Shown here in pieces: positions 1,853 through 3,828 of a stretch of DNA of 5,466 nt. The notes beneath the pieces are model-generated. The model ran no database searches and was not told the origin of the DNA. It saw only the letters and a program-made list of their open reading frames with translations. The first letter of the stretch is position 1. The number at the start of each line of letters is the position of its first letter. The DNA is from a virus (lineage: Duplodnaviria; Heunggongvirae; Uroviricota; Caudoviricetes). The DNA lies in IMG/VR virus record IMGVR_UViG_2675903538_000015, positions 1 through 5,466 of that record, one strand, 5' to 3'. A program made the translations under genes and the position numbers.

Positions 1853-2368
1853 ATGGCGTTAACACACCACGAACTCTGTCAGATTGCGTACAAGTTCCTT
1901 AAGCGCAACGGGTTCAAGGTTTGCTTTCATGACCGCTTTGTTGCTGTAACCAGTACCGGAGAACAGCCAGATGCTATGGGATTCAGAAATTCAGCATCAT
2001 GCCTGATAGAGGCGAAGTGTTCTCGTGCTGACTTGTTGGCAGATAGAAAAAAGCGTTTCCGTAAAAATCCCTCACTTGGCATGGGCGACTGGCGATTCTT
2101 TATTAGTGAGCCGGAAATTATTTCAGTTGAGGATTTACCTCCCGGCTGGGGATTACTTCACGTTGTTAACGGAAGAGTACGGAAAGTACATGGATGGCCC
2201 AGGGGTAATTGCTGTTGGGGTAATCCTGACGATAAGCCATTTACCGGGAATAAGCAGGTTGAATGCGATTACATGTTATCTGCATTAAGGCGCATGGAGC
2301 TAAGAGGACACCTTAATGAAATATATGACGGTGTAATTGTTAATAAGAAAGAAGGAAACGCAGCATGA
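1853..2368 (+). CDS. Putative PD-(D/E)xK nuclease-fold protein (171 aa)
   Basis: ATG 1853 is 6 nt after GGAG 1843-1846. The translation contains ...TGEQPDAMGFRNSASCLIEAKCSRADL..., i.e. an acidic residue, then PD, then about 12 residues, then E-A-K. This matches the spacing of the restriction-endonuclease-like PD-(D/E)xK core. Stop TGA 2366-2368 overlaps the next ATG (ATGA). Confidence 0.6.
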   Translation: MALTHHELCQIAYKFLKRNGFKVCFHDRFVAVTSTGEQPDAMGFRNSASCLIEAKCSRADLLADRKKRFRKNPSLGMGDWRFFISEPEIISVEDLPPGWGLLHVVNGRVRKVHGWPRGNCCWGNPDDKPFTGNKQVECDYMLSALRRMELRGHLNEIYDGVIVNKKEGNAA

Positions 2369-3408
2369 CCACTTTAACCGACAAAGAACTGATTAAAGAA
2401 ATCAGAGAGCGAATCGGCAGCCTGGACGTCCGAGACAATATTGAGCGTCGGGCTTATGAAATTGCTCTGGAATCGCTGGAAGCAGAACCAGTTGCTTATA
2501 TTTTCAAACATCCGGCCGGGAAATTATTCTGGGCTTTAACGGATGAAAGCAATAAAGAGCAACCGGACGTTATTCCTGTTTATGCTGACTCACCTGCGCC
2601 GGTTGTGCCGGATGAAATAGACGTAAACGATGTACCAAGGGCGGTGACATATTTCAAGACACACAGAGATTGTTACGCAGATGGCTGGAACGCCTGCCGC
2701 GCCGCCATGCTTCAGTCCGGAAACTTTCGGGAAAACAAGAATTCGTCAACCAATAATTTTCGGGAAATCGCGGAAACGTCAACCAACTATCCGGTAATTC
2801 CTAGTGAGGTGTTGTCCGCAATCCGGGAGGTTGCCAAGATTCGTGCCGATTTCGATGATTTTGACGGTGACAGGCGAGGTATCGGTGATTGTCTGGATGA
2901 GGCCGAGCAAGAGCTTATCGTTACCATTAACAAATATGCCAGTCAGTTGGCAGCAGAACCGATAGCGACTAATGACGTTCGAGAGCAGCAGACAGCCGTT
3001 CCGCCAGTTCCGGAAATACAGGATGATGTCGCGCAAGCAATTGAAAATCTCAAGCAGAAGTTAGTGGAATGCAATCGCTATAACTACTGCGCAGATGCAG
3101 TTAAAGGCGTAGAGGATGCCTGCCACGCTGCCATGCTTCAGGGTAGCCAACCTGTAAGCCAAACTTACAAGTTGCCAGTTAATACACCTTGCCAAGATGC
3201 GCCAGCCCATATCTGGCTGCAAACGGCTGGAGTATGGCCAGAAGATGGCGAGTTAAGTGAATTAACGTGGTGCAGCCACAATCAGCACCATGATGACACG
3301 CTATATGTTCGAGCTGACCTTGTGAATGGCAACTCTCCGGTAACTCCGGATAGTTGGATAAGCTGTAGTGATCGAATGCCGGACGACAGGCAGGAGGTGA
3401 ATCAATGA
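2365..3408 (+). CDS. Hypothetical prophage protein (347 aa) with an internal duplicated Cys-containing motif
   Basis: ATG 2365 follows GAAGGA at 2350-2355. Two copies of a related segment occur: CYADGWNACRAAMLQ and YCADAVKGVEDACHAAMLQ, with a 22/24 nt match at 2692-2715 versus 3118-3141. A low-complexity NFRENKNSSTNNFRE linker lies around 2724-2780. The C-terminus ends ...PDSWISCSDRMPDDRQEVNQ*. Stop TGA 3406-3408. Confidence 0.7.
   Translation: MTTLTDKELIKEIRERIGSLDVRDNIERRAYEIALESLEAEPVAYIFKHPAGKLFWALTDESNKEQPDVIPVYADSPAPVVPDEIDVNDVPRAVTYFKTHRDCYADGWNACRAAMLQSGNFRENKNSSTNNFREIAETSTNYPVIPSEVLSAIREVAKIRADFDDFDGDRRGIGDCLDEAEQELIVTINKYASQLAAEPIATNDVREQQTAVPPVPEIQDDVAQAIENLKQKLVECNRYNYCADAVKGVEDACHAAMLQGSQPVSQTYKLPVNTPCQDAPAHIWLQTAGVWPEDGELSELTWCSHNQHHDDTLYVRADLVNGNSPVTPDSWISCSDRMPDDRQEVNQ
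3392..3397 (+). promoter_or_regulatory. Shine-Dalgarno (AGGAGG) for the small hydrophobic ORF
   Basis: Consensus SD 7 nt upstream of ATG 3405; embedded in the 3' end of the upstream CDS. Confidence 0.5.
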
Positions 3409-3488
3409 GCTGGCCTGATGCAATCGTAACTCTGGGGGTGGTATTCGCAGCAGCGTTTGTTGTGTTCTCGATTTGTCGATGGGGATAA
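3405..3488 (+). CDS. Small hydrophobic peptide (27 aa, MSWPDAIVTLGVVFAAAFVVFSICRWG), predicted single transmembrane helix
   Basis: Not in the ORF track because it is too short. ATG 3405 overlaps the upstream stop (ATGA) and is preceded by a perfect AGGAGG; TAA 3486-3488 lies 4 nt before the next gene's ATG. Core of about 18 uninterrupted hydrophobic residues flanked by D and R/W. Confidence 0.45.
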   Translation: MSWPDAIVTLGVVFAAAFVVFSICRWG

Positions 3489-3492
3489 CCAC

Positions 3493-3735
3493 ATGTTCGC
3501 TTTGATTCAACGCGGTCAGATATACACGGACAGAGCTGGATACCCCGTGGTGATTACTCGCATCACTGAGCACTCAGTGTTCTTTCGACGGATGGACGGA
3601 CGCTCCGGGCGGGTACGCATTGGTGAGTTAAACTGCCTGTTCGAACATATTGACCACCAGGAGTACCGCAAAATTCTCGCGGACACTGAGCAGGAAAAGC
3701 ACCTGAAAAAATTACGAGCCATAAAAAGGAAGTAA
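3493..3735 (+). CDS. Small hypothetical phage protein (80 aa), basic C-terminus
   Basis: Probable start at ATG 3493 (the track's 3457 start is an in-frame TTG upstream). Sequence MFALIQRGQIYTDRAGYPVVITRITEHSVFFRRMDGRSGRVRIGELNCLFEH... resembles small beta-rich prophage proteins found near integrases, possibly a DUF4222-like family; this is recalled, not verified. Ends TAA 3733-3735. Confidence 0.55.
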   Translation: MFALIQRGQIYTDRAGYPVVITRITEHSVFFRRMDGRSGRVRIGELNCLFEHIDHQEYRKILADTEQEKHLKKLRAIKRK

Positions 3736-3738
3736 AGA

Positions 3739-3828
3739 ATGAATAAAGCATTTGAACGATGGGTCCACCAGCGTTACGGCAATCGCTATGACCTGACGCG
3801 AGATGTTGACGGCTTCTACTGTCGTTAA
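3739..3828 (+). CDS. Possible small ORF (29 aa, MNKAFERWVHQRYGNRYDLTRDVDGFYCR), or the 5' part of a disrupted small gene
   Basis: ATG 3739 is 6 nt after AGGAAG (3727-3732). The frame stops at TAA 3826-3828, but the same frame continues for 14 more codons (VVKRMFEVWCHCRG) to TGA 3871-3873. Very short; coding status uncertain. Confidence 0.2.
   Translation: MNKAFERWVHQRYGNRYDLTRDVDGFYCR

Follow-up and report, generated by a model that had tools for sequence, protein, structure and literature searches.

DUF551 has been described in the literature as a portable domain of unknown function (PMC10834534, PMC4776307). The Ea22 variant genes, of which V2 carries DUF551, have been described as mosaic (PMC10834534), and YfdS has been linked to H2O2 sensitivity and, together with YfdQR, to inhibition of replication initiation (PMC4776307). 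In this study, an open reading frame (ORF) of 347 codons was analysed, which lies at positions 2365-3408 of the first 5,466 nucleotides (nt) of the IMG/VR virus record IMGVR_UViG_2675903538_000015; this whole stretch of 5,466 nt is referred to as the window. The window is the early leftward (pL-side, ea/exo-xis) accessory region of a lambdoid Escherichia coli prophage, shown along the direction of transcription, and the ORF is a member of a known, uncharacterised and highly mosaic prophage gene family. Genes of this family are named 'DUF551 domain-containing protein' by PGAP and EaA, Upf89.5 or, loosely, Ea22 in some phage records. The ORF is very probably an intact early accessory gene located before xis and int in the ea/exo-xis region, and its product ends in a DUF551 tail whose core appears to have been lost by an in-frame deletion. 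The same high confidence extends to the explanation as a whole, that is, to the identity of the gene, the repeat at cassette ends as a recombination joint, a single deletion of the core, and the spread of the resulting allele. The features at the 3′ end of the gene are as follows.

2365-3408, plus strand: coding sequence of 347 codons with an ATG start and an intact frame; mosaic early accessory gene with a DUF551 tail lacking the core
3337-3381, plus strand: 45-nt block encoding PVTPDSWISCSDRMP, near-invariant as DNA; 5′ boundary of the DUF551 cassette
3352-3399, plus strand: DUF551 stub, amino acids (aa) 330-345, profile positions 1-16 of 68 (Pfam, domain model)
3381-3393, plus strand: putative deletion junction zone GGACGACAGGCAG; the best estimate of the join is the CAG (Gln343) codon at 3391-3393
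3391-3408, plus strand: native 3′ end, kept (Q-E-V-N-Q-stop), including the AGGAGG Shine-Dalgarno sequence (3392-3397) of the next gene
3405-3488, plus strand: 27-codon ORF for a hydrophobic single-helix peptide (MSWPDAIVTLGVVFAAAFVVFSICRWG); conserved family, ATGA-coupled to the preceding gene

The 347-aa protein, which an ORF search recovered as an earlier note on this DNA had described it, has a C-terminus reading ...DSWISCSDRMPDDRQEVNQ. Residues 330-338 (WISCSDRMP) form the W-I-S-x-S-E/D-R-M-P start of DUF551. The Pfam profile (PF04448) aligned with aa 330-345 over its positions 1-16 of 68 and scored 21.3 bits, below the gathering cut-off of 22 bits. When aligned with its relatives, the window protein was missing the beta core of DUF551 and the C-terminal H-W-M-P-L-P-E-P-P. 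A search with the protein found 7997 homologues at E<=0.001, and 108 of the best 120 carried a full core after WISCSERMP, running for approximately 40-65 further residues to ...HWMPLPEPPQE; most of these core-bearing homologues were 388-424 aa long and had precomputed PF04448 hits. The full profile (1-68/68) was matched by the full-length homologue P0026 at 76.3 bits and by a protein of E. coli N17 at 74.8 bits. The suggestion of the earlier note that the protein ends in the incomplete start of a DUF551-like domain was thus confirmed, and the check that it had proposed, whether homologues extend past this point into a further domain, gave a positive answer in these 108 proteins. A related protein of 210 aa, WP_000628753.1 (positions 2891-3523 of locus L002, E. 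coli F2_407_2_2), was found to be named 'DUF551 domain-containing' with profile positions 1-16 of 68 alone, at 23.8 bits against the cut-off of 22. The first 16 conserved residues can therefore pass the Pfam threshold, and proteins that lack the domain are named after it.

Both ends of the gene were found to be native. Seven full-length homologues end ...HWMPLPEPPQEVNQ, with final five residues equal to those of the window protein. At the DNA level, the full-length genes of loci L016 and L020 read ...CCGCAGGAGGTGAATCAATGAGCTGGCCTGA... at their end, where a homologue of the 27-codon ORF (MSWPEAFTTVGIVMAAALGLYSICRWW) begins, again with an ATGA overlap. E. coli N17 (locus L096) has a complete DUF551; starting at GCAGGAGGTGAATCAATGA, the DNA behind it agrees with the window at every base across the 27-codon ORF and on into the DUF4222 gene. 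Full-length DUF551 genes hence have the 27-codon ORF as their normal downstream neighbour. In the window, the TGA of the 347-codon ORF (3406-3408) overlaps the ATG of the 27-codon ORF (3405-3407), with AGGAGG (3392-3397) seven bases upstream, and approximately 13 first and 5 last codons of the DUF551 domain are retained. Since both gene ends are present and the middle is absent, an in-frame internal deletion of the DUF551 core is indicated. The earlier note was correct in regarding the C-terminal domain as incomplete; the mechanism, an in-frame deletion of the core with both native ends kept, differs from the one that it had proposed. As the stop codon, the Shine-Dalgarno sequence and the ATGA overlap are all retained, downstream translation would be undisturbed. 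An in-frame deletion can thus take a whole domain and yet spare the stop-start coupling to the next gene, and this preserved coupling may explain why the stub allele has persisted and spread.

By the mechanism proposed here, DUF551 would be a self-contained small beta domain of approximately 68 residues, with a core that is hypervariable between conserved ends in the relatives, and one in-frame deletion would have fused two Gln codons, one lying some 13 residues after the start of the domain and the other belonging to the terminal PPQEVNQ. A relative with MPDDKQY... (locus L098) reads GGACGATAAACAG where the window has GGACGACAGGCAG, and the join most likely lies between two CAG (Gln) codons; a microhomology of CAG or GCAG may have caused the deletion. 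Judged from the sequences, the deletion probably measured 45-61 codons, depending on the parental core type, and removed profile positions 17-68; we place considerable confidence in this estimate. In an AlphaFold2 model of the isolated DUF551 domain, with a predicted local distance difference test (pLDDT) value of 69, the three main strands (residues 21-29, 34-42 and 62-67) were all located in the missing part, and the stub would presumably be unable to fold. The structural neighbours of the domain in BFVD were DUF551 proteins of many unrelated phages, several being just 64-75 aa long. These stand-alone proteins indicate that the domain is autonomous, and that it was lost here rather than inserted elsewhere.

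The deletion allele was found to be widespread. The exact 43-nt junction was present in 75 IMG/VR contigs, and of 5426 complete E. coli genomes, 148 (O104:H4 C227-11 among them) matched a 70-nt probe spanning the junction at a coverage of >=80%; a truncated form of 336 aa (P0001) was recorded on 303 contigs. In 80 junction-bearing loci, the stub ended 29 distinct complete proteins, which ranged from 27 to 431 aa (at least 134 aa in 24 cases) and had differing sets of upstream modules. The stub proteins of these loci all end ...WISCSERMPDDRQEVNQ, one variant having WITCS..., and the stub is linked to a single allele of the 27-codon ORF. The simplest reading of these sequences is that the deletion happened once and then moved with the downstream block while the upstream part reassorted. 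The block carried along would consist of the 27-codon ORF, the DUF4222 gene, xis and int, and the upstream joints would have supplied the many N-terminal module sets. In E. coli E110019 (locus L097, 2495-2617), a fragment of the junction region (ATCGAATACCAGGACGCCGCAGGAGGTGAATCAATGA) was found after an unrelated frameshifted gene, and the 27-codon ORF forms the last part of a 40-aa protein annotated there; the stub region of this strain has recombined further.

The remainder of the protein consists of the following parts.

2365-2490, plus strand: N-terminal leader, aa 1-42, ending ...ALESLEAEP; exchangeable, the homology of relatives often beginning or ending at aa 26-32
2593-2715, plus strand: cassette 1, aa 77-117, PAPVVPDE + variable middle + GWNACRAAMLQ (alignment, profile comparison)
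2692-2715, plus strand: repeat copy 1, GCCTGCCGCGCCGCCATGCTTCAG; conserved cassette-end block and probable recombination joint
2722-2787, plus strand: linker of two tandem 33-nt units of 11 aa each, NFRENKNSSTN and NFREIAETSTN (repeat search)
3001-3141, plus strand: cassette 2, aa 213-259, PPVPEIQDD + variable helical middle + ACHAAMLQ (alignment, profile comparison)
3118-3141, plus strand: repeat copy 2, GCCTGCCACGCTGCCATGCTTCAG (repeat search, shuffles)
3142-3351, plus strand: module C, aa 260-329, predicted to be beta-rich; accompanies the ACHAAMLQ block in many other proteins

The two repeat copies, 426 nt apart, are identical at 22 of 24 nt and encode N-A-C-R-A-A-M-L-Q (aa 109-117) and D-A-C-H-A-A-M-L-Q (aa 251-259). 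This match had been pointed out in the earlier note and is real: when the window was shuffled 200 times with its dinucleotides preserved, no match at <=3 mismatches arose, indicating that the repeat is not due to chance. Comparison of the protein with itself upheld the short motif repeat as well, and went no further than the motif. When its 8-residue core was left out, the observed score of the flanks was attained by 134 of 1000 shuffles for the 60 residues before it and by 914 of 1000 for the 52 residues after it. A profile-profile comparison (hhalign) of aa 41-120 with aa 205-262 gave a probability of 94% over 45 columns with the motif and 7% without it. With the similarity confined to the 8-residue core, the recurring unit is a type of cassette with conserved ends, not a duplicated domain. 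Cassettes of this type are common to many relatives. They open with a proline-rich segment (PAPVVP-D/E-E and variants), continue with 15-35 unrelated residues and finish with G-W-N-A-C-R/H-A-A-M-L-Q; the 24-nt repeat would thus encode GWNAC(R/H)AAMLQ, the final part of a helix at the close of a cassette of approximately 35-45 residues.

With two degenerate positions allowed, the 24-mer was detected in at least 120 IMG/VR contigs. Its 176 occurrences among the matches listed and in other loci fell into 73 distinct upstream and 78 distinct downstream contexts of 18 aa, sometimes at the end of a protein. In loci that had not been chosen for the motif, all 115 instances used essentially the same codons, including CTT for Leu, which argues that the block is shared as DNA and not re-invented as a peptide. 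Across contexts one Cys is invariant, His253 is Arg in most instances, and the upstream Cys is missing from most. A literature search for the peptide motif returned chance strings only. The tandem 33-nt pair, which was absent from the list of the earlier note, was reported by one repeat search and not by Tandem Repeats Finder, its two-copy score being under the threshold of that program. The closest relatives (P0001, ARS-C301 and RM11911) have one hybrid linker unit where the window has two, an in-frame difference in copy number. The exact combination of a two-unit linker and the stub occurred in none of the complete E. coli genomes searched, the best match being 99.5% identical with a 33-nt gap.

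Over the modules preceding DUF551, the protein belongs to the mosaic body family of DUF551-tailed prophage proteins (PHROG 14306 / PHROG 60): phrog_14306 matched aa 106-261 (E=2.2e-84) and phrog_60 matched aa 1-255 (E=2e-47), both being annotated as of unknown function. The Ead/Ea22-like profile PF13935 gave no match to the protein at E<=1 and matched the neighbouring ORF 659-1354 at 2.2e-23; the Ead/Ea22-like gene of the window is thus a separate ORF (626-1357), and the 347-aa protein is not a member of the Ea22 family. Nothing meaningful was obtained for it from NCBIfam and nothing at E<=1 from a sequence profile search of the PDB, and the defence-system profiles of PADLOC-DB matched neither the window proteins nor P0026. 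An AlphaFold2 model of P0026 built on a 46-sequence alignment had a mean pLDDT of 44 and was used for rough secondary structure alone.

We are fairly sure that the protein is a chain of short modules, linked by blocks whose nucleotide sequence is near-invariant although the sequences on either side are unrelated. The gene of the 210-aa relative in L002 matches window positions 2460-2715 (99.6%) and 3118-3585 (97.0%). The stretch common to both matches is precisely the 24-nt repeat, and the gene corresponds exactly to that of the window without the 402 nt that separate the copies. A search of 1.84 billion clustered proteins supplied 150 top-ranking representatives, whose homology end-points were observed to cluster at aa 26-32, 131-140, 211-220, 241-270 and 330-345. 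Eighty-two of the 203 internal end-points were no more than 8 aa away from a motif copy, and positions this close account for 14% of the protein length; megablast matches in phages and E. coli genomes broke at the same places. The 45-nt PVTPDGWISCSERMP block was nearly invariant over 23 upstream and 20 downstream contexts. Behind it, 14 types of DUF551 core were distinguished with a mean identity of 22%, whereas the upstream 280 aa of the same proteins were 95-100% identical. These hypervariable cores (C-termini of P0004-P0120; L096, 2163-2519) are bounded by the conserved WISCSERMP and HWMPLPEPPQE.

Phage Rad52-like recombinases have been reported to drive lambdoid mosaicism via short, diverged homologies; Red-beta needs a pairing segment of at least 23-27 bp, and RecA one of at least 31-34 bp (PMC3945230). 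Such recombinases are encoded nearby in relatives of the prophage, and the conserved blocks are similar in size to the Red-beta minimum. The blocks probably act as homology patches for recombination, presumably through phage Rad52-like or RecT recombinases. A literature search on intragenic shuffling in lambdoid phages yielded nothing on the present gene family, for which the contexts and end-points provide countable evidence that the shuffling of lambdoid accessory genes runs through short nucleotide-conserved blocks. A 95%-identical full-length copy (P0004; L011, 3001-4188) was located in the nin region, after lambda-P-like replication genes and before NinX and terminase, indicating that the gene family moves between two accessory regions of lambdoid genomes.

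Several points weigh against the explanation favoured here. No full-length parent with ...MPDDRQ and a core (CGAATGCCGGACGACAGGCAG followed by a base other than G) was present in the IMG/VR or JGI metagenome contigs, so the left breakpoint and the microhomology are deduced from related, not identical, cores. The two 24-mers of the window share just 12 consecutive identical bases, which is under the published minimal pairing length; the event that distinguishes the L002 gene may have occurred between better-matched alleles, or may have been an insertion rather than a deletion. The context counts of the 24-mer come from an exact-DNA search and alone are no proof of DNA conservation beyond the needs of the peptide, and the codon uniformity of the 115 instances, which answers this bias, is drawn from related loci. 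Finally, PGAP labels close copies of the gene incomplete, partial or pseudo. By these flags the ORF would be a decaying pseudogene without remaining function, an alternative with some plausibility that we nevertheless consider unlikely. It accords with the loss of a whole domain, with the nonsense mutation at 3826 in a neighbouring small gene, and with the further shortening of a few stub loci to forms of 27 aa and 185 aa. On the other side, the window gene has an intact frame, as do most of the 29 architectures that carry the stub, and the allele is widespread. The flags derive from longer reference proteins, and the ORFs beneath them, of 336 aa and 171 aa in L004, run without interruption. 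Pairwise ratios of nonsynonymous to synonymous substitution (dN/dS) against relatives were 0.23-0.42 over the shared modules, values that describe the family and not the stub lineage alone. The remaining core-less protein may still be functional. Regarding annotation quality, PGAP was seen to break intact ORFs of this mosaic family into 'partial' pseudogene pieces: at L004 (2489-4011) and L001 (5489-7002), intact ORFs of 336 aa and 171 aa are split into 'incomplete' or 'frameshifted' fragments.

The other alternatives concern the origin of the stub and of the repeat. The earlier note had read the 3′ end as an insertion or recombination junction at which the 27-codon ORF was introduced, severing the 3′ part of an ancestral DUF551, and the ORF does stop 16 residues into the profile, right where a small ORF with a strong Shine-Dalgarno sequence starts. 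The same small ORF, with the ATGA overlap and the preceding CAGGAGGTGAATCA, nevertheless follows the full-length genes of L096, L016 and L020, so that the downstream synteny which the note had wished to see compared places it next to the stub and to complete genes alike; moreover, the five QEVNQ codons with which the window gene closes are also the native ending of full-length genes, and the junction contains no foreign sequence. We therefore regard this origin as very improbable. Scarcely any weight is left for the reverse history, in which the short form is an ancestral 'empty' site and DUF551 cores were inserted later as cassettes. The cores are hypervariable between conserved ends and seemingly exchangeable, as such a history would have it; against it, DUF551 is one continuous Pfam domain with the conserved ends as part of its profile, stand-alone proteins of 64-75 aa occur in distant phages of Synechococcus, Rhizobium, Delftia and Pseudomonas, and the stub has a single junction in 148 genomes, compared with 2423 genomes matching the wider 1436-nt gene region. 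As for the repeat, the earlier note saw in it a duplicated module with Cys/His positions, possibly metal-binding. An internal duplication of a folded domain of this kind would agree with the 22/24-nt identity, with a local alignment of aa 9-117 and aa 152-259 that beat all 500 shuffles, with the 94% hhalign probability over 45 columns, and with the placement of both motifs at the C-terminal end of predicted helices (low confidence). The flanks, however, lose significance once the 8-residue motif is removed, the sequence before GWN is unrelated in more than 70 contexts, the second Cys is usually missing and the His is mostly Arg; a set of three to four or more ligands, recurring per copy and across homologues, was not found. 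Near-identical codons beside unrelated flanks point to a shared recombining block and not to an old duplication, which makes the metal-binding module improbable.

Beyond the favoured explanation, in which a single core deletion spread with the downstream block, a more far-reaching proposal can be made, which we put forward tentatively and think rather doubtful. The 24-nt GWNACRAAMLQ, the PAPVVPEE and the 45-nt PVTPDGWISCSERMP blocks may be kept as 'universal joints' of a combinatorial cassette system, sized for Rad52-like/RecT pairing, with the DUF551 core and the cassette middles of approximately 20-30 residues as specificity determinants under diversifying selection. If so, the middles and cores could bind variable targets of the host or of rival phages, and the window allele would be a 'null' state of the DUF551 cassette. 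A hypervariable DUF551 core behind a constant body is also a lead for assigning a function to DUF551 and to proteins of the exo-xis region. A polymorphic-toxin-like system was considered and dropped. The 14 core types behind the near-invariant 45-nt block do constitute a variable C-terminal domain after a conserved boundary, but the small ORF downstream does not change in step with the core as an immunity gene would: in a small sample, L016 and L020 differ in the core and share one allele of the 27-codon ORF, and a single allele is likewise common to the stub and the full-length gene of N17.

The 27-codon ORF was found to belong to a family of small hydrophobic peptides (MSWP[DE]A...SICRW[GW]). 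Diverged alleles of 24-27 aa follow at least 5 different upstream genes, each time with an ATGA overlap and an upstream GGAGG, and the family is usually missed by gene callers. The genes of the window are closely packed, with overlapping stop and start codons at several boundaries. Their order is the end of a YfdR-like gene, a 116-aa ORF, the Ead/Ea22-like gene (PF13935), an XF1762/Mom-like gene, a 171-aa ORF, the 347-aa ORF, the 27-codon ORF, the DUF4222 gene, a short ORF, an excisionase gene (DUF1233) and a tyrosine integrase gene. The closest complete genomes are those of E. coli strains, in which the prophage adjoins a DUF72 gene, yecN and cmoA. Two of the neighbours are specified below.

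1853-2368, plus strand: 171-aa ORF, intact; phrog_9263 and phrog_631, function unknown in the annotation
3493-3735, plus strand: DUF4222 gene, 80 aa; member of the downstream block moving together with the DUF551 stub

The stop codon of the 171-aa ORF overlaps the ATG of the 347-aa ORF (ATGA). The product of the 171-aa ORF has a D...E-A-K arrangement (PDAMGF...IEAKCS) and a weak match to a PHROG annotated as 'DNA repair protein' (E=0.0046), and might be a candidate nuclease of the PD-(D/E)xK type, judging from these residues. The short ORF after the DUF4222 gene (3739-3828, 29 aa) is a 44-aa gene cut by a nonsense mutation at 3826, where the window and E. coli ARS-C301 have TAA and L002 and phage PhiR5_1 have GAA; it aligned to positions 1-29 of the 48 of phrog_3871.

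Compared with described systems, the window gene shares its genome region and early pL transcription with lambda Ea22 and the Stx-phage variants V1-V3 (Goddard et al. 2024, PMC10834534). The supplement of that paper held no matching sequence text, and, with no PF13935 match in the 347-aa protein, the pro-lysogenic role of Ea22 is not transferable to it. YfdS of the cryptic prophage CPS-53 is a DUF551 protein encoded after yfdP-yfdQ-yfdR homologues, an arrangement also seen in relatives of the window prophage; it is a short protein with a complete domain, whereas in the window protein the domain is missing. The closest full-length counterparts are the DUF551 proteins of E. coli and Salmonella prophages and of P1/P7-like plasmids (P0004-P0026, 390-408 aa), which are 88-95% identical to the window protein over aa 1-340 and have the same modules, the two ACxAAMLQ blocks and the PVTPDGWISCSERMP block; the Upf89.5 gene of phage P7 shows 97.3% DNA identity over window positions 2460-3163. 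These proteins match the complete profile (1-68/68) at approximately 75 bits, whereas the window protein is without positions 17-68. The stub relatives, namely P0001 (336 aa), WP_000628753.1 (210 aa) and the 'Ea22' gene of PhiR5_1 (252 aa), have the identical junction, 27-codon ORF and DUF4222 gene. They differ from the window upstream, P0001 having one 11-aa linker unit instead of two and the 210-aa form being without the stretch between the 24-mers.

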